A DNA stretch of 7,806 nt from the IMG/VR virus record IMGVR_UViG_3300029459_000073, positions 1-7,806 of that record. One strand, written 5' to 3'. The position numbers were made by a program, and so were the translations under genes. Below the pieces are notes generated by a model. That model saw only the letters and a list, made by a program, of their open reading frames with translations. It was not told the origin of the DNA and made no database searches. Each line of letters starts with the position of its first letter. The stretch's first letter is position 1. Shown one piece after another: positions 1 to 6,861 of the stretch. Origin of the DNA: a virus (Duplodnaviria; Heunggongvirae; Uroviricota; Caudoviricetes).

Positions 1-208
1 CAGCAATATCCATGAAAAACTGCTTCGCCTGCTTTTTCGCCTCAGCTTCGTAAAACTCCAGCGTGGCACCTTCAGTACGGTCAAGACTAATCGCCACATT
101 TGGCAACAACAGTGGCGGATACCCACCAATTTCCAGTGCCACAGTAACAGCTATCTTATCCGGGTAATGATTTATCCCTTTTACAACCAGTTCATATTTT
201 TTATTCAT
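1..208 (-). CDS. Hypothetical protein, partial (first 69 codons; gene continues past window position 1). Not a recognisable endolysin N-terminus.
   Basis: Hand translation of the reverse complement from ATG at 208..206 gives MNKKYELVVKGINHYPDKIAVTVALEIGGYPPLLLPNVAISLDRTEGATLEFYEAEAKKQAKQFFMDIA with no stop before the window edge. GGAGAG Shine-Dalgarno lies about 9 nt upstream. It starts 5 nt after the holin stop, so it is probably co-transcribed. Absent from the ORF track only because it is truncated. Confidence 0.45.
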   Translation of the reverse strand, partial: MNKKYELVVKGINHYPDKIAVTVALEIGGYPPLLLPNVAISLDRTEGATLEFYEAEAKKQAKQFFMDIA

Positions 209-212
209 CGCT

Positions 213-428
213 TTACTCTCCCCGCGCCGCCTTACGACGGTCCTCTCTGATTTTGAAATACAGGTTAGTCAGATATGTCAGCAGCCCAAACAGCAGACTT
301 CCCAGTACGCCTATTGCCGCCCACTGAGACGGGGAAACCCTGTCCAGCAGCTGCAGGAACCAGTAGCCCGTCCCCACCGCTGACGTGGTGTATGACACAC
401 CTGTTGTGATTTTTTCCATCTGGTACAT
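213..428 (-). CDS. S: Class II holin (pinholin), phage 21 S21-like, 71 aa, with dual-start MYQM motif
   Basis: The 71-aa product ([71 protein letters not shown]) closely matches my recollection of the phage 21 / DLP12 EssD pinholin, including the C-terminal [15 protein letters not shown] and the [13 protein letters not shown] segment. Two hydrophobic segments are present. GGAG lies about 9 nt upstream of the ATG at 428. Confidence 0.85.
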
Positions 429-503: not shown

Positions 504-773
504 TTACATCATCATTTCGCCGTCAGGCTGAGGCTCACTGCCACCATCAGGCTGAGACACGACACCATCTGAAACAGCACTGTCACCCGCACCGTCTTCA
601 GGCCCGTGAGCAGCCGTTACCCCCAGCAGTTCATCAAGAATGGCATCCACTTCAGCATCAAGACGCGCCTCAAGATTCTGACGAAGTTGCTGTTTCAGTG
701 CGCTCCTGACTTCTTCAGAGCGCAGAACATCCTTCACTGCTTCAGCAGTGACCAGCGATTTTATTTCTGACAT
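504..773 (-). CDS. Hypothetical small acidic protein (89 aa from internal ATG at 773..771 of the 147-aa ORF)
   Basis: ORF track 504..947. The internal start gives MSEIKSLVTAEAVKDVLRSEEVRSALKQQLRQNLEARLDAEVDAILDELLGV followed by a low-complexity acidic tail. No convincing RBS. It lies between nanS-p and the holin, where Stx phages carry small ORFs. Weak call. Confidence 0.25.
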   Translation of the reverse strand: MSEIKSLVTAEAVKDVLRSEEVRSALKQQLRQNLEARLDAEVDAILDELLGVTAAHGPEDGAGDSAVSDGVVSQPDGGSEPQPDGEMMM

Positions 774-810
774 GGTATTTTCTCGTTGAAAGGTGTTGTT
801 AAGAAAGTTG

Positions 811-993
811 CTACGGAATGAGAGGCTCTTCGGGTTTTGTTCCGGCTGACTGACTGGCACTGATTTTCTCAGCGGCCCTTTTGTCAATCTGTCTGCGCCA
901 GAAATCGCGCACTGCCCTGTACCCACCCGAAAGAAGATACAGCACACAGACCGCCGTACAGAAGTACAGCATCACCTGATGAATAAATGTCAT
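811..993 (-). CDS. Hypothetical small membrane protein (60 aa, one predicted transmembrane helix)
   Basis: ORF track 811..993 (MTFIHQVMLYFCTAVCVLYLLSGGYRAVRDFWRRQ...). A hydrophobic stretch is followed by a basic segment. ATG at 993..991 with a weak RBS. Overlaps the N-terminal extension of the 504..947 ORF in another frame, so only one of the two readings can be right there. Confidence 0.3.
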   Translation of the reverse strand: MTFIHQVMLYFCTAVCVLYLLSGGYRAVRDFWRRQIDKRAAEKISASQSAGTKPEEPLIP

Positions 994-1127: not shown

Positions 1128-3089
1128 TCATGCCGCGGCATCCGCGTTGTTCACTTCCACCTTCACACTGTCAATCAGCAGCGTATATGTCGCCGCCTTT
1201 GATATGCCTGTCAGTTGCAGTTTGTCCGCCGCCCCTGATGCCGGAGATTTCACCAGTGTGAACGGCGTCCCCCGTTTCTCATCCAGTACCGGCGTCACCT
1301 GAATGCTGTTGTTTCCGGCAAACTCAAAAGCCAGTGTGTGCCATCCGTTATCAAAGACCCCGAACGTATCCAGCTTCGCATTCGGCTTCTTGTGGTACAT
1401 CGCGTTCAGGTTCGTCGCATCCGTCTGCAGGAAGAAGGACATCAGCATGTCGTTGCCTTCCTCTGCCAGCGTCACTCCCTCCGGCAGGGACGACAACTGC
1501 CAGTAAATGCCCAGGGCAAACCGATTCGGCACCAGTGAACCCGGCAACTTAAACCGTACGCTCACACGTCCCCCCTTCTTCAGTAACTCCACTCCCTGTC
1601 CGGCTGCATCATGCTCCAGAAACCAGATGTGGTTTTCCGGTTTATTCAGTTGCAGGGCCTTACCTCCCGTAGCCCCCGCATCACTGACCACCGCTTCAGC
1701 AATGTTTTTGTTAACATTGTCTCCGCTCGCCGGTTTGTGATAATAGCGCCAGCCCTGTGATGCCAGGTCTTCGCCGGACGCCAGCAGACTCATCAGGGTT
1801 CGGTTACTGACCGGGGCTTCCGGCTCTCTCTCCGTACCTTCACCGGAAGGTCCGGTGGGCTTCACCGTATCAGGCTGTTTTCCGGTAATGAATTCAGCGG
1901 TTCTCCCGGCATGCACAAGAATCGCCGTTGCCAGACGGTCGGAAATAATCCCACGACGTGCCCATGATCCAAAATGCGTTTTACGGTCGGCCGTCGTCCA
2001 GGTTTTGGCGTCCGTTCGACCACCGGCTCCGTAATACCCAATATCCGCAACATCCGGATCTTCTGACGGCTCGTTGGTACCCACATTTCGCCCGTTTTCA
2101 TCCGTCATAAACGGCACAAAGAAGATTTTTTTTGCGGATTTCGTCTTGTATGCACCATACACCGCATCGTATTGCGAAGAATAAGTCTGCTTCCAGTAGT
2201 AGGTCGTGTCGCCACAAATCCAGGGAACCGATGACGGAGAGCCCCCGAGACACTGACCTCCGAATTCCGACAGGTCAGAACGATATTTTTCCACCATGGA
2301 ATCAAACAGCCCCGGCTGAGTGGCGTATGCACCCTGTTTCAAATCAAACTCGCCCTGCATCCAGACCACTGCAAGCAGAATATTTTTAGGGTTAGCCTTC
2401 AGTGCGGCCTGAGTACGGGTAAGCAGGTCCTTGTACAGTGGCTTATCTACACCCCAGCGTGCCGAGGTCTCGCTTGCGCCGGTGGATTCGCTGAAGGTAC
2501 CTTCATCGCCCGCCAAAAATGCAGAACCACCACGGCAGCACGGAACCAGAAGAATACCGGCATTCGCCGGAATAAACGGCAACAATTTCTTCGCGATATG
2601 TAATCCCTGCCCCACGCATCCATACTGAGCTGCGCTGGCTTTCGGGTGTGAAAACTTACTCAAATCCTGAACATCATGCAGGCAGTGGTCCGCAGGAATA
2701 ATGTCATTGTAGTTACAGGACGCACCACCCGGCGTGACAGTGCTGCGACGCGCCAGCTGTTTAATACGCGGGTCCGGACGGTCATATGTCTCCGGCAGCG
2801 GAAGCCCTTCACCATACGCCATACCGTTTGACTGCCCGGCCAGGGCAACAACAAAGTAATACTCCGGGTTGCTGGTGGTGCTGATAACTGCGCCTTCTCC
2901 ATCCGACGGCTTCACCACCACAGGTGTGGTGACATCACCTTCCGCCGCAATGGCCTGCATCAGGGTATAAGGCGTGATGGCCACCGGACTGCCAAATGGC
3001 TGCCACCCCTCCTTCAGTTTTTGTGTCAGTCGCTCCGCAAGGTCTGACGGCGACGCCGCCCTGACCACGTCATAGTGTTTAAATGCCAT
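1128..3089 (-). CDS. nanS: Prophage-encoded sialate (9-O-acetyl-N-acetylneuraminic acid) O-acetylesterase, NanS-p type, 653 aa
   Basis: The N-terminus MAFKHYDVVRAASPSDLAERLTQKLKEGWQPFG matches the DUF1737 start I recall for the 933W-type NanS-p (the yjhS-like gene downstream of stxB). The central region carries the SASA/SGNH-type block VVALAGQSNGMAYGEG. Strong RBS GGGAGG 5 nt upstream of the ATG at 3089. Single uninterrupted 653-codon frame. Confidence 0.88.
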   Translation of the reverse strand: MAFKHYDVVRAASPSDLAERLTQKLKEGWQPFGSPVAITPYTLMQAIAAEGDVTTPVVVKPSDGEGAVISTTSNPEYYFVVALAGQSNGMAYGEGLPLPETYDRPDPRIKQLARRSTVTPGGASCNYNDIIPADHCLHDVQDLSKFSHPKASAAQYGCVGQGLHIAKKLLPFIPANAGILLVPCCRGGSAFLAGDEGTFSESTGASETSARWGVDKPLYKDLLTRTQAALKANPKNILLAVVWMQGEFDLKQGAYATQPGLFDSMVEKYRSDLSEFGGQCLGGSPSSVPWICGDTTYYWKQTYSSQYDAVYGAYKTKSAKKIFFVPFMTDENGRNVGTNEPSEDPDVADIGYYGAGGRTDAKTWTTADRKTHFGSWARRGIISDRLATAILVHAGRTAEFITGKQPDTVKPTGPSGEGTEREPEAPVSNRTLMSLLASGEDLASQGWRYYHKPASGDNVNKNIAEAVVSDAGATGGKALQLNKPENHIWFLEHDAAGQGVELLKKGGRVSVRFKLPGSLVPNRFALGIYWQLSSLPEGVTLAEEGNDMLMSFFLQTDATNLNAMYHKKPNAKLDTFGVFDNGWHTLAFEFAGNNSIQVTPVLDEKRGTPFTLVKSPASGAADKLQLTGISKAATYTLLIDSVKVEVNNADAAA

Positions 3090-3311: not shown

Positions 3312-3315
3312 GTCC

Positions 3316-3341
3316 ATAAGAAAGCCCCTCCGGAGAGGGGC
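3316..3341 (-). terminator. Candidate rho-independent terminator, minus-strand orientation, back-to-back with the 3284-3311 terminator
   Basis: Stem GCCCCTC (3324-3330) pairs with GAGGGGC (3335-3341) around loop CGGA. On the minus strand it is followed by TTTCTTAT (complement of 3323-3316). The U-tract is interrupted, so this is a moderate call. Confidence 0.4.
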
Positions 3342-3660
3342 TGGAGAGTGGCGCTATGTGCCATTGCATGGTGCCGGGTGCCTCCCGGTGAGTTCAGTAT
3401 CAGCACCTGAACCCGCACAGAAAGGATAAGGGTCGGTGACAAAACACCAGTTGCTGATTGCCCCTCCGCACAGGGGGATTCACCATGCCAGTTTCTTTTA
3501 ACAAACTCCCCGCAAACCAGACAACAGTCAACCGCCTGAATTGTGAGGTATTTAAAAATTTCAACGGGTAACTGATACCCTGCTAATCGCCTGATGCTTT
3601 CTTTTTCAGCAACGGGAAAGCAACAACCACCACACCCACCAGCCGCCCATTTACCACAAA

Positions 3661-4093: not shown

Positions 4094-4657
4094 TCAGTTT
4101 GCAACATTTTTCTCTGTAACAAAAGCCATGCGCATGGGGGCATATAACATAAATTCAGATACCCCCAACCATTGATCAATTCGGCGTCTGCACGTAACCA
4201 ACGACCAATCAGGATGATCTGCATTTAACCTTTCGGCCATTTTCAGTTTGCTCATTCCCCGTCCTTCGTACCTTTGCCGGAGAACATTGATTAGCCCGGG
4301 ATATTCCCCAAGCACCTTACTGATAACGCGATCAATAATCAACGCCTCTGTGTCTGTACAATGTGACAACCAGCTCTTCTGCTTTCCTCTTGTCATATCC
4401 CGAAAAAATGCCTCAAGTTCCGGTTTTTCCAGCCCGGATTTCTTCATTCTGCGCAAAACCTCATTAACTGCTGTTTTCGTCAGCTTTTTCGAAACCAGTA
4501 ACCGGTTAAACATATTTCCGGATTTACCCCCACCGATATACGACCACCGCCCCCACATCCGTAATTTCCCCTGGATCCAGACTGCTTCCAGCGTGTTCAG
4601 GCGTAAATGTTCGCCGCTTTTGCCTGTAATTTCCGGATATATCATATTTACGCTCAC
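4094..4657 (-). CDS. Q: Late-gene antitermination protein Q-like (187 aa from GTG at 4657, or 183 aa from ATG at 4645)
   Basis: It occupies the canonical Q position: directly after rusA (6-nt gap) and directly before a tR'-like terminator and the late/lysis region. The protein family was not matched residue by residue from memory, so the call rests mainly on synteny and size. Confidence 0.6.
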   Translation of the reverse strand: MSVNMIYPEITGKSGEHLRLNTLEAVWIQGKLRMWGRWSYIGGGKSGNMFNRLLVSKKLTKTAVNEVLRRMKKSGLEKPELEAFFRDMTRGKQKSWLSHCTDTEALIIDRVISKVLGEYPGLINVLRQRYEGRGMSKLKMAERLNADHPDWSLVTCRRRIDQWLGVSEFMLYAPMRMAFVTEKNVAN

Positions 4658-4663
4658 TCACTC

Positions 4664-5023
4664 TCAATTTTGTAAATCTTCACACCCAGCCNNNNNNNNN
4701 NNNNNACCAGATACTGGCTGACCACGTACAATATTGATTTCATCAAACTGCTCATCGTCCATTAACAGTCCTGCATGCGTCAGCGCATCCAGCGGCGCTT
4801 TCAGGATATTGTCCAGGTCGCGACGGCGCTTATCCGGTGGCTCTGCCATAATCCTGATTACCAGCCTTCCGGACAGGCTTAATTTCAGCCGCTGCTGGCG
4901 AACAATAAGCGCCACAGCCCGGCGATAACGCTTTCCCTCCTCCGAGATAAAATATGTGCTGCCACGGCGTCGCCAGTAAGTGTTCACCGTCGGCGGGTAA
5001 GGTAAAACCAAATCTATGAGCAT
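4664..5023 (-). CDS. rusA: Crossover junction endodeoxyribonuclease RusA (Holliday junction resolvase), about 119 aa, interrupted near the C-terminus by an N-run
   Basis: MLIDLVLPYPPTVNTYWRRRG...PPDKRRRDLDNILKAPLDALTHAGLLMDDEQ matches the RusA signature I recall from DLP12 RusA (LPWPPS.N.YY..., DRRRRDLDNLQKA.FDALT). Strong RBS AAGAGGTGA 5 nt upstream of the ATG at 5023; the track's start at 5026 is a GTG one codon further up. The C-terminal sequence after 4705 is uncertain because of the N-run at 4692-4705. Confidence 0.85.
   Translation of the reverse strand: MLIDLVLPYPPTVNTYWRRRGSTYFISEEGKRYRRAVALIVRQQRLKLSLSGRLVIRIMAEPPDKRRRDLDNILKAPLDALTHAGLLMDDEQFDEINIVRGQPVSGXXXXXAGCEDLQN
4692..4705. 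other. Run of 14 ambiguous bases (N), an assembly gap or masked bases inside rusA
   Basis: Literal n characters in the sequence. True length and content are unknown. Confidence 0.95.
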
Positions 5024-5035
5024 CACTCACCTCTT

Positions 5036-6082
5036 TTACCCAAGCACGCCAGTTGCAAAGGCGTGATCAAGAAAACGAAAAATTAAATCAACCTGAGAAC
5101 CATGCTTTTCTTCGAACGCCAGAGGATCCGCATGAAGCTCGTTGTGATGCTCCCGACACAGCGGTAGCGTGAAAATATCGTGAGATTTTGTCCCCATTCC
5201 GCCCTGACCATGACCAATCAGGTGATGGGGATCGTCGGCTGGCTTACCACAACACGCACACGGCTGTGTCTTCACCCAGCGTGTGTATTTCTCGTTAACC
5301 CAGCGGCGACGTTTAGGTCGTTTCATGAAAGATTCCGGAGACTCAGGATCAACGGCAATGCTGACCACCGTCTTTTCCTGTGGTGGGTTCTGTTGCTGGT
5401 GGGCGTGAGNNNNNNNNNNNTTTTTTGTGCGCTGTTTCAGTATGCTGGTGGCGGTCTGCTCTCCCGGTACGATGTCGCTTTCACGGTACATTGAGCGGAT
5501 TTTTTCCGCACGCAACCCCAGCGAACGACGTAATACCGCTTCCGGTAGCGCGTCCGCCACCTGATTGTGGACCGCCCACCAGGATAATTCAGCCAGCGAT
5601 AATTCCCGCTCCTGTGTGCCATTCATTGCGTGACGAATGACGTCAATCATCCATGCTGACAAGTTTTGGTGAGCAAGTTGCTCAAGTGATTCGGAGGTCT
5701 GGTCACGCAACTGGTTGTCGCAGTGCCAGCACAACACCATTGCGCCGGTACCATAACGGTGAATGACGGTTTCGCTGTGATGATAATCGCCGTGTGGCCA
5801 CTGGCAGGATTTAATATGGCGCAACAGCCAGTCAGACAATGCACCAGCACCACCAGCAGCACGAATCACCCGTGCGTTACTGAAAAACGGCAGCAATGTT
5901 TTGTCTTCCACCAGCGGCTGGCGAACGGCAGGAACGACCCCGGACGGCAGATTACGCATGCTTTTCGGTTCCGGCTCCACCAGTACCCGGGTATTGTGGA
6001 ATACCGGCATGGATTCACGGCCCGGCTTAACGATCACCAGCCCGAGTTCCGGTACCAGAACAGGTCGAAGTAATACTCGCAC
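5036..6082 (-). CDS. ydfU: DUF968-family prophage protein (YdfU-like) with a C-terminal Cys/His HNH-like motif, 348 aa, interrupted by an N-run
   Basis: Size and position (between the Rem-like ORF and rusA/Q) match the K-12 Qin ydfU as I recall it. The C-terminus carries CACCGKPADDPHHLIGHG...LPLCREHHNELH, a CxxC...HH...CxxHH arrangement. GTG start at 6082 with strong GGAGGT 3 nt upstream; an alternative ATG is at 6010. The internal N-run at 5410-5420 makes the frame across it unverified. Confidence 0.8.
   Translation of the reverse strand: MRVLLRPVLVPELGLVIVKPGRESMPVFHNTRVLVEPEPKSMRNLPSGVVPAVRQPLVEDKTLLPFFSNARVIRAAGGAGALSDWLLRHIKSCQWPHGDYHHSETVIHRYGTGAMVLCWHCDNQLRDQTSESLEQLAHQNLSAWMIDVIRHAMNGTQERELSLAELSWWAVHNQVADALPEAVLRRSLGLRAEKIRSMYRESDIVPGEQTATSILKQRTKXXXXXHAHQQQNPPQEKTVVSIAVDPESPESFMKRPKRRRWVNEKYTRWVKTQPCACCGKPADDPHHLIGHGQGGMGTKSHDIFTLPLCREHHNELHADPLAFEEKHGSQVDLIFRFLDHAFATGVLG
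5410..5420. other. Run of 11 ambiguous bases (N) inside the DUF968 gene
   Basis: Literal n characters in the sequence. Confidence 0.95.
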
Positions 6083-6362: not shown

Positions 6363-6434
6363 CGGTTGTCTCTGCTGGCGCAGCAGGTGCCAGTTGTTCA
6401 GGCTGGCGTGCGAATTGTAAACCAGAATGCCAGG

Positions 6435-6461
6435 AAAAAACAAAACCCGCCGAAGCGGGTT
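6435..6461 (-). terminator. Strong rho-independent terminator ending the hok transcription unit
   Basis: On the minus strand: 7-bp stem AACCCGC/GCGGGTT with a UUCG tetraloop (loop complement of 6451-6454), followed by TTGTTTTTTCC (complement of 6443-6433). Confidence 0.6.
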
Positions 6462-6500
6462 ACGTGCGGGTGCGTTGAGGATGCCTGACACATCAGAGGT

Positions 6501-6522
6501 GGCGAGGGATTTCTCCCTCGCC
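6501..6522 (-). other. Perfect 9-bp stem-loop 8 nt downstream of the hok stop codon (candidate 3' mRNA structural element)
   Basis: GGCGAGGGA (6501-6509) pairs with TCCCTCGCC (6514-6522) around a 4-nt loop. No U-tract follows on either strand, so it is not called a terminator. Confidence 0.4.
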
Positions 6523-6529
6523 GGGTCTC

Positions 6530-6685
6530 TTACTCCTCAGGTTCGTAAACTGTGAAGACAGCGACCTCCGTCTGGCCGGTTCGGATTCGTACCTCGCAGA
6601 GGTCTTTCCTCGTTACCAGTGCCGTCACTATGACGGTTAAACAGATGACGATCAGGGCGATTAACATCGCCTTTTGCTGCTTCAT
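6530..6685 (-). CDS. hokD: Hok/Gef-family type I toxin (small membrane toxin), 51 aa, HokD/RelF-like
   Basis: MKQQKAMLIALIVICLTVIVTALVTRKDLCEVRIRTGQTEVAVFTVYEPEE has the Hok hallmark (hydrophobic helix, LTRK.LCE.R motif, conserved Cys) and closely matches my recollection of K-12 HokD (RelF). RBS AAGGAG about 9 nt upstream of the ATG at 6685. The track ORF 6530..6742 adds a 19-codon in-frame upstream extension. Confidence 0.85.
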   Translation of the reverse strand: MKQQKAMLIALIVICLTVIVTALVTRKDLCEVRIRTGQTEVAVFTVYEPEE

Positions 6686-6861
6686 AGCCTGCTTCTCCTT
6701 GCCTTTCGGCACGTAAGAGGCTAACCTACATGTGTCTAGCATGAAATTGGCCTCAGATTAATGTTAAGCGTCTTGCAGGACGCGTAATGTTAACTGGGGC
6801 TTTTCTCTATCTGCCTTTTGGTATTCATGCCTGAGACAGATAGCCTCAAGCACCCGCAGCA

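Follow-up and report, generated by a model that had tools for sequence, protein, structure and literature searches.

In phage 21 the lysis genes follow one another in the order S21-R21-Rz/Rz1, with the endolysin gene R directly after the holin gene S. The first-pass annotation took this to be the normal arrangement behind S21-type pinholins, which agrees with most cases but not with all of them, since at least 100 records in the phage collection carry a DUF1327 gene against 436 with an S21-type holin (about a quarter) and Escherichia coli K-12 departs from the pattern as well. The order in the K-12 Qin prophage is essQ, 4 nt, ydfR (103 aa), rrrQ (177-aa lysozyme) and rzpQ/rzoQ. The sole functional data on the family to which ydfR belongs concern the K-12 protein (Göpel et al., RNA Biology 2026; PMC13232886). 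A bacterial two-hybrid screen yielded residues 1-72 of YdfR, which correspond to the DUF1327 domain and suffice for interaction with Rne 1-597 and, more weakly, with RNase G (Rng); Rne 1-598-FLAG was co-purified from lysate by Strep-YdfR, and the Strep-YdfR eluate was rich in DNase-resistant nucleic acid (PMC13232886). Overproduction of YdfR altered few transcripts and left growth unimpaired (PMC13232886). Co-purification from lysate without nuclease treatment could reflect an RNA-bridged contact between YdfR and Rne.

Two other kinds of phage gene are relevant for comparison. Morons are independently acquired accessory genes of the late operon, for example lambda bor and lom, and the classical ones form autonomous transcription units, which the lysogen expresses. 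The small phage proteins phiKZ Dip, T4 Srd and T7 gp0.7 act on the host RNA-decay machinery in lytic growth. Srd and gp0.7 are modulators of host RNA decay, and Srd contacts the catalytic N-terminal half of RNase E. The part of RNase E that Dip binds is the C-terminal scaffold and not the catalytic domain (PMC4980113).

We analysed a stretch of 7,806 nucleotides (the window) that ends within a gene placed behind an S21-type holin (Table 1). With a probability of about 97%, its first 208 bases hold the start of a YdfR/DUF1327-family gene that belongs to a lambdoid, Stx-phage-like E. coli prophage and fills the translationally coupled slot immediately behind its S21-type pinholin gene; the product is soluble, acidic and cytoplasmic, and neither an endolysin nor a membrane protein, and the real lysis enzymes follow in relatives. 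The chances are about evenly balanced that the whole of our explanation holds, comprising identity, full length, cargo role and mechanism. At the level of annotation the gene is already known, as a member of a named family with a copy in the K-12 reference genome; the novelty implied by the first-pass annotation is hence lost to the existing Pfam, RefSeq and PHROG entries.

Table 1. Features of the window (nucleotide positions and strand) and modules of the DUF1327 proteins (residues).
Feature	Position	Strand	Basis or remark
YdfR/DUF1327-family gene, 5' part (69 codons + 1 nt)	1..208	-	Pfam PF07041, PHROGs, K-12 YdfR homology
Spacer, holin stop to DUF1327 ATG	209..212	-	4 nt, read from sequence
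Shine-Dalgarno GGGGAGAG for DUF1327 gene	216..223	-	inside final holin codons, ends 9 nt ahead of ATG
S21-type class II holin (pinholin type), 71 aa, Met1/Met4 dual starts	213..428	-	Pfam Phage_holin_2_1 E 9e-33
DUF826 small late gene	504..776	-	Pfam PF05696 E 1.4e-32
DUF1378 small late gene	811..993	-	Pfam PF07125 E 1.4e-37
NanS-p-like sialate O-acetylesterase (DUF1737 + SASA + DUF6645), 653 aa	1128..3089	-	Pfam
Terminator-like sites between Q-like gene and nanS-p	3685-3668, 3342-3323, 3214-3199	-	
DUF1133 / Q-like antiterminator	4094..4657	-	Pfam PF06576 E 6.8e-105; Phage_antitermQ E 1.4e-07
DUF1327 core, two allelic types	residues 1-76		family survey
Optional linker	residues 77-114		family survey
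Coiled-coil-like segment, optional insert	after linker		family survey
C-terminal module, one of two alternatives	C-terminal end		family survey

The assignment to the family rests on several lines of comparison. The 69-residue fragment matches Pfam DUF1327 over profile positions 1-69 of 93 (118.3 bits with a cut-off of 25, E 1.7e-34), and homologous DNA is named "YdfR family protein" by RefSeq in every E. coli match. In PHROGs the DUF1327 gene is spread over five families, all of unknown function, with 2091, 1085, 406 and 2735 listed for the fragment. K-12 YdfR aligns with the fragment without gaps across all 69 residues (42% identity, E 2e-20). An invariant motif, R44-x2-G47-x2-L50-E-F-Y-E-A55, appears in the window as D43-R44-T-E-G47-A-T-L50-E-F-Y-E-A55; its columns R44, G47 and LEFYEA50-55 are unchanged in alignments of 47 and 22 sequences spanning both DUF1327 subfamilies, and remote members retain [DE][RK]xxGxx[LI]x[FY]YE. 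The median pairwise dN/dS is about 0.29 (69 codons; 14 pairs from 7 unique alleles, a small sample), a value indicating that the gene is under purifying selection. Taken with the Pfam match of 118.3 bits, it places the reading frame far beyond what chance would be expected to produce. All DUF1327 domains are acidic (pI 4.3-5.4). The window gene thus shares with K-12 ydfR the family, the LEFYEA motif and the slot 4 nt behind the gene for an S21-type holin, as well as the position upstream of a 177-aa SAR lysozyme and Rz/Rz1, which for the window is seen in relatives. The two differ in the domain allele (INHYPDK...EIGGYPPLLLP in the window versus VRNFENK...DKERFDGEIF in K-12 YdfR) and in extent, the K-12 protein ending after 103 aa with a short basic tail whereas the window copy most likely extends to a 330-aa multi-module protein.

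The gene begins at an ATG (208-206, minus strand) and its reading frame exits the left edge of the window after 69 codons, with the translation MNKKYELVVKGINHYPDKIAVTVALEIGGYPPLLLPNVAISLDRTEGATLEFYEAEAKKQAKQFFMDIA, identical to the residues quoted in the first-pass annotation. The ribosome-binding site and start codon reported behind the holin were also found as described, with GGGGAGAG at 223-216 and the ATG at 208 on the minus strand; the spacer that had been given as 5 nt is 4 nt long (209-212), counted from the holin stop codon TAA at 215-213. Because the Shine-Dalgarno sequence sits within the last holin codons, 9 nt before the ATG, the arrangement with its 4-nt spacer implies that translation of the DUF1327 gene would be coupled to that of S. 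The holin and DUF1327 genes are likewise parted by the stop codon and 4 nt in the five phage records listed for both genes. Among 26 junctions examined, the spacing after the holin stop is 3-4 nt throughout, irrespective of the next gene, and the Shine-Dalgarno sequence is kept at every one, as GGGGAGAG or, in K-12, as GAGGAGAG. It is also present at two loci where the lysozyme itself fills the position behind the holin (L022 and L026). At these 26 junctions the slot behind S in Escherichia takes a DUF1327 gene, a stand-alone coiled-coil gene or the lysozyme gene R, and is therefore generic.

Upstream of the holin the gene content is that of a lambdoid late operon. The exact NanS-p protein of the window is present in O104:H4-type prophages, and a NanS-p gene is the usual upstream neighbour of the lysis cassette in Stx-phage-like prophages, whose gene order is given in PMC10462455. 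An STnc100 element lies between the Q-like gene and nanS-p, a stretch that also holds the terminator-like sites of Table 1. From nanS-p to the DUF1327 gene the minus strand has no strong terminator-like site, and a consensus scan of the same strand near 209-520 gave only chance-level matches to a sigma-70-like promoter for the gene, whose downstream end is outside the window. By this gene order the DUF1327 gene lies within a Q-dependent late operon headed by the DUF1133/Q-like gene, and the protein would be made late, alongside the holin, from the Q-dependent late transcript.

The lysis cassette to which this region belongs is conventional, and the gene after the pinholin gives no sign of a new lysis enzyme. 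The holin is 79% identical to K-12 EssQ and matches those of several Stx2a phages at 100% identity, and public assemblies contain the exact protein in 37,755 index blocks. Relatives that retain an intact lysis region have the DUF1327 gene followed by a 177-aa SAR lysozyme (Phage_lysozyme) and then Rz/Rz1, so that the canonical R and Rz/Rz1 proposed as a check are present; in the best proxy loci R lies about 1.4-2.6 kb further downstream. The N-terminus of these lysozymes carries a Lys/Arg-flanked, Gly/Ala/Ser-rich segment, MNAKIRYGLSAAVLALIAAGAPAP, and their motif E35-x8-D44-x5-T50 has a spacing that we take to match the R21 catalytic triad. The same holin-DUF1327-lysozyme order is found in PhiR phages and O104:H4 prophages, among others, and in the Stx1 phage H-19B a 114-aa DUF1327 ORF lies unannotated in the 400-nt S-R gap of the GenBank record. 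The cassette therefore shares with phage 21 the holin Pfam family and the dual Met starts, and in relatives a lysozyme with a Gly/Ala-rich, SAR-like N-terminus, and differs from it by the extra non-lytic gene in the slot that R occupies in phage 21.

The protein itself has the features of a small soluble domain. No SAR, signal or TM segment was found in the 69-residue fragment by hydropathy or in the AF2 model of a relative, in agreement with the earlier observation that the hydrophobic SAR N-terminus is missing: the highest 19-residue Kyte-Doolittle score is 1.14 (residues 22-40, which include E, G and three P), compared with 1.67 for the SAR segment of the neighbouring lysozyme and 1.70 for the holin TMD. 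AF2 was run on a 114-aa relative (P0002) that is 96% identical to the fragment, with an alignment of 47 sequences. In the resulting model strands span residues 5-14, 18-27 and 38-43 and a helix residues 50-76, followed by a low-confidence tail; the confident domain covers residues 1-76, with a block-mean pLDDT of 76-93 over residues 1-70. Residues 22-40 form beta-strands and a loop, and the invariant residues R44, G47 and L50-A55 map to the junction of strand 3 and the helix. According to this model the conserved unit is a compact soluble domain of about 75 aa with three beta-strands and a helix, of which the 69 residues in the window would span nearly the whole. Foldseek searches with the domain against BFVD and PDB returned nothing at E <= 1e-3, and sequence-profile searches of all PDB sequences nothing significant. 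Profile searches also detected no lysozyme, amidase or peptidase signal, either in the fragment or in any full-length relative (114, 211, 263 or 330 aa), and PADLOC defence models matched neither the 211-, 263- and 330-aa forms nor a 104-aa partner.

The full length of the window copy was approached through proxies, as no public locus was found that is identical across the whole window end: the exact holin, NanS-p and DUF1378 proteins led to close mosaics, and the exact DUF826 protein to no match. Three loci, L017 (E. coli B1-56), L023 and L025, match the last 212 (or 210) bases of the window with 100% identity; the latter two were found via the exact DUF1378 protein of the window and are 97.9% identical to it over the last 1100 bases. 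An intact reading frame of 330 aa is present at all three, and because every one of these loci, identical over the last 212 nt, encodes the 330-aa form, the window copy is probably of this modular type as well, in which DUF1327 is followed by a 40-aa linker, then by a coiled-coil-like helical region and finally by a C-terminal module of some 110-150 aa. The window itself shows 69 codons, and we infer the 330-aa length from the three proxies with their identical N-terminus, in a region that is highly mosaic. PGAP labels the B1-56 gene as a pseudogene with a missing C-terminus, which looks like an annotation artefact because the 330-aa protein and phrog_1085 match over their full length. The coiled-coil and C-terminal part is found by itself too, in stand-alone proteins of 185-213 aa that are able to fill the same slot behind the holin. 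The C-terminal extensions are hypervariable; that of the long form has no match in Pfam, NCBIfam, PADLOC or PDB sequences, and the AF2 model of the full 330-aa form (mean pLDDT 51) is confident in the DUF1327 domain only.

DUF1327 genes are common in E. coli, and the family is found at varied genomic positions. DNA similar to the first 212 bases of the window was detected in 1308 of 5426 complete E. coli genomes; the long form occurs with at least 80% query coverage in 491 of them, and some part of it in 2918. When 1.84 billion cluster representatives were searched exhaustively with a profile, 92 DUF1327 matches were obtained at E <= 1e-3. The remote members consist of the domain only (72-76 aa), and occur in other Enterobacterales, with Yersinia, Sodalis and Pantoea as the genera named. 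Six remote clusters were sampled, four of which belong to tail modules: directly upstream of a gpL-like tail gene (the M/L region) at the Sodalis locus, and between gpM-like and gpL-like, gpL-like and gpK-like, and gpI-like and gpJ-like tail genes at the others. One is located upstream of HNH/terminase genes and one behind a holin-lysozyme-spanin set, and none directly behind a holin. The family is thus not tied to the S/R slot or to lysis genes, and the DUF1327 gene is present or absent among otherwise alike lysis cassettes, with several insertion sites.

Given this presence/absence polymorphism, the generic nature of the slot behind S and the remote members outside lysis cassettes, we lean towards regarding the DUF1327 gene as mobile accessory, 'moron-type' cargo of the late operon that stands outside the lysis mechanism. 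The first-pass annotation had proposed an extra gene between S and R as cargo, lysis regulator or anti-defence factor; the insertion is indeed seen in relatives with an intact lysis region, and of the three roles cargo fits best because distant DUF1327 members lie outside lysis cassettes. With the lambdoid morons the gene shares its presence or absence between syntenic phages, its occurrence at several late-operon positions and, often, an accompanying gene on the opposite strand. Unlike the classical morons, it is coupled to S, and no separate promoter or terminator is evident for it in the S/R slot. The frequent attachment to the holin in Escherichia, with conserved coupling, could nevertheless point to a lysis-related role there.

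As to what such cargo might do, the DUF1327 domain would bind a host factor, for which the likeliest candidate is the catalytic N-terminal domain of RNase E in view of the report on K-12 YdfR, and this binding would tune RNA decay late in infection, while the variable C-terminal modules would add to or redirect the activity. We put this forward tentatively, with the odds somewhat against it, by homology with K-12 YdfR; for the window gene the link to RNase E is inferred from one study of a homologue of 42% identity. As the domains are acidic, docking on the surface of an RNA-binding enzyme fits better than direct binding of RNA. If the K-12 YdfR result transfers, DUF1327 would be a temperate-phage counterpart of Dip, Srd and gp0.7 and, like Srd, would contact the catalytic half of RNase E, although profile and fold searches of PDB show no similarity in sequence or fold between these proteins and DUF1327.

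A different account, which would not exclude the cargo reading, makes DUF1327 one half of a mobile two-gene module together with a convergent ORF, as a toxin/antidote-like, exclusion/defence or anti-defence pair in which expression of DUF1327 would be late and the partner would be transcribed in the lysogen from a promoter of its own. A small opposite-strand ORF ends between -53 and +41 nt from the DUF1327 stop in five of the six remote clusters and at many E. coli loci, and this recurrence suggests a putative two-gene cassette, at least for the minimal DUF1327 forms. The 95-aa partner of the E. coli loci L009 and L024 is homologous to those in L037 (E 2e-26) and L039 (E 8e-16), so that partners of 94-96 aa recur although the cassettes occupy three different genomic slots. 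Hypervariable C-terminal extensions and partners are also what would be expected of arms-race genes. However, a common homology of all antisense partner ORFs was rejected: by BLASTP, phmmer and PHROGs they fall into separate families (at least five unrelated PHROG families without detectable common homology) except for the 94-96-aa one, no partner accompanies the gene in K-12 Qin, in the common 114-aa forms or at the Sodalis locus, PADLOC provides no match, and the convergent small ORFs could be merely co-located morons. We therefore hold the pairing to be unlikely. Equally unlikely is its fuller version, in which DUF1327 would be the constant half of a small cassette, with a hypervariable convergent partner, that hops between late-operon slots of Enterobacterales prophages and in E. 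coli was captured behind the pinholin, where it gained exchangeable effector modules at its C-terminus.

The position behind S also invites the interpretation that the protein regulates lysis, as a cytoplasmic antiholin-like or endolysin-timing factor held in a fixed ratio with the pinholin by coupling and acting, for instance, through binding to the basic C-terminal tail of S. Cytoplasmic antiholins such as T4 RIII do exist; yet S21-type holins bring their own dual-start antiholin, with Met1 and Met4 present in the window holin. The place directly behind S in Escherichia, with its conserved 3-4 nt spacer and shared Shine-Dalgarno sequence, would suit such a factor, and so would an acidic domain (pI about 5) opposite a strongly basic cytoplasmic holin tail, but remote DUF1327 members are found beside tail modules, terminase or after a spanin rather than beside holins, and the gene is absent from about 77% of the phage records with an S21-type holin. 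A genome-wide screen cited in PMC13232886 is said there to show that loss of ydfR affects envelope integrity, which would favour a part in lysis; ydfR is absent from the main text of that screen (Paradis-Bleau 2014), however, and the phenotype is possibly a polar effect of the Keio insertion between essQ and rrrQ on the lysozyme gene. Together with the lack of a growth or lysis phenotype on overproduction of K-12 YdfR, these points make a regulator of lysis decidedly improbable.

That the gene encodes an unusual endolysin, a new muralytic class replacing R as the first-pass annotation had considered, is favoured by position alone (the slot is held by R in phage 21, L022 and L026) and we reject it as extremely improbable: no length variant has a catalytic domain or motif, neither the fragment nor the modelled relative shows a signal, SAR or TM segment, what is conserved is a 75-aa domain built of three strands and a helix, no homology to a known endolysin family was found in the full-length relatives, and every relative that retains an intact lysis region has a canonical SAR lysozyme (E35/D44/T50) with Rz/Rz1 behind the gene, all of which bears out the other statement of that annotation, that the gene after the pinholin is not a recognisable endolysin.

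Our preferred reading remains accessory cargo of the late operon, and what the analysis adds to the annotated family is modest: the mobility of the domain between late-operon slots, the generic coupled slot behind S, the modular C-terminal extensions and a partly conserved convergent partner, and not a new kind of system. About a quarter of the phage records that have an S21-type holin carry the gene, over half of the complete E. coli genomes contain its long form at least in part, and classic Stx phages such as H-19B are among its carriers. Were the mobile two-gene cassette real, it would represent a new class of temperate-phage module for host takeover or conflict, affecting late gene expression in Stx phages among others. 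If the RNase E link holds for the phage-borne alleles, the gene may influence the stability of late transcripts in Stx phages, including the stx and lysis mRNAs.

The YdfR-family (DUF1327) ORF of Escherichia coli B1-56 (L017) is intact, encodes 330 aa and is matched across its full length by phrog_1085; hence its pseudogene label in PGAP is likely an annotation artefact, probably arising because the reference model is short. The GenBank record of phage H-19B (AF034975.3) carries no annotation for the 114-aa DUF1327 ORF situated between S and R. In another relative, L016, holin and DUF1327 are called as one fused gene because the Shine-Dalgarno sequence has lost one base of its GGGG run and reads GGGAGAG rather than GGGGAGAG, a loss that represents either a sequencing error or a genuine frameshift.

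Coordinates of features in the window and in the comparison loci
Feature	Location	Strand	Remarks
Hok/Gef family ORF; sok antitoxin RNA	window 6530-6742; window 6680-6855	-	Pfam E 6.3e-22; Rfam 120.7 bits
STnc100 (Rfam sRNA family)	window 3312-3517	-	full-length match, 143 bits
Three terminator-like hairpins	window 3685-3668, 3342-3323, 3214-3199	-	around the STnc100 match
YdfR-family gene	L017:8003-8995 (NZ_AP040249.1 2029569-2030561)		PGAP: pseudogene 'missing C-terminus', 8003-8338 only
DUF1327 ORF, 114 aa	L029:2498-2845 (AF034975.3 about 16461-16808)		phage H-19B, between S and R
Holin-DUF1327 fused gene call, 187 aa	L016:9663-10226		similar fused calls: proteins P0061, P0229
94-96-aa partner proteins	L009:7038-7325; L024:7513-7800; L037:942-1232; L039:4245-4529	- (all)	
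IS element, DDE_Tnp_1 transposase, 326 aa	L023 and L025, 7254-8234		

For a conserved partner family of 94-96 aa, the gene is always convergent and lies just 3' of a 75-76-aa DUF1327 gene, in three distinct genomic slots (the E. coli loci L009 and L024 and the remote clusters L037 and L039). The E. coli members belong to phrog_10490, and their similarity to the remote copies is significant (E 2e-26 and 8e-16).

The window holin (213-428, minus strand) begins with MYQMEK (Met1/Met4), while EssQ of K-12 begins with MKSMDK. The longer S21 product owes its antiholin character to an extra positive charge; since Lys is absent between the two Met codons in the long form of the window holin, the holin/antiholin distinction may be different here, as judged from the N-terminus.

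Upstream of the lysis genes, the NanS-p-like esterase (1128-3089, minus strand; 653 aa) is identical as a protein to the copy in O104:H4-type prophages, whereas the DNA just downstream of its gene (1-1000) has only ~94% identity to the same strains. This difference shows that nanS-p and the lysis genes lie on opposite sides of a recombination mosaic boundary. The stretch between the Q-like gene and nanS-p, with the STnc100 match and its hairpins, is probably the late-promoter leader/terminator region and Q target; it contains no tRNA or stx genes, which sit at the corresponding position in Stx phages. Elsewhere the prophage contains a hok/sok-type toxin-antitoxin locus, supported by Pfam and Rfam matches. 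Two N runs, at 4692-4705 (14 bases) and 5410-5420 (11 bases), break the RusA-like (4664-5026) and DUF968 (5036-6082) ORFs, are read as XXXXX in their translations and presumably reflect masking rather than biology.

At L024 (5558-7800) the lysozyme gene immediately adjoins the holin gene; next comes a second holin copy (6393-6608), behind which lie a stand-alone gene for a coiled-coil/C-terminal-module protein of 213 aa, a DUF1327 gene of 75 aa and an antisense ORF, apparently a duplicated or nested lysis-slot cassette. In L023 and L025, the two loci nearest to the window, an IS element separates the DUF1327 module and antisense ORF from the lysozyme gene, and R and Rz may thereby be uncoupled from the late transcript.
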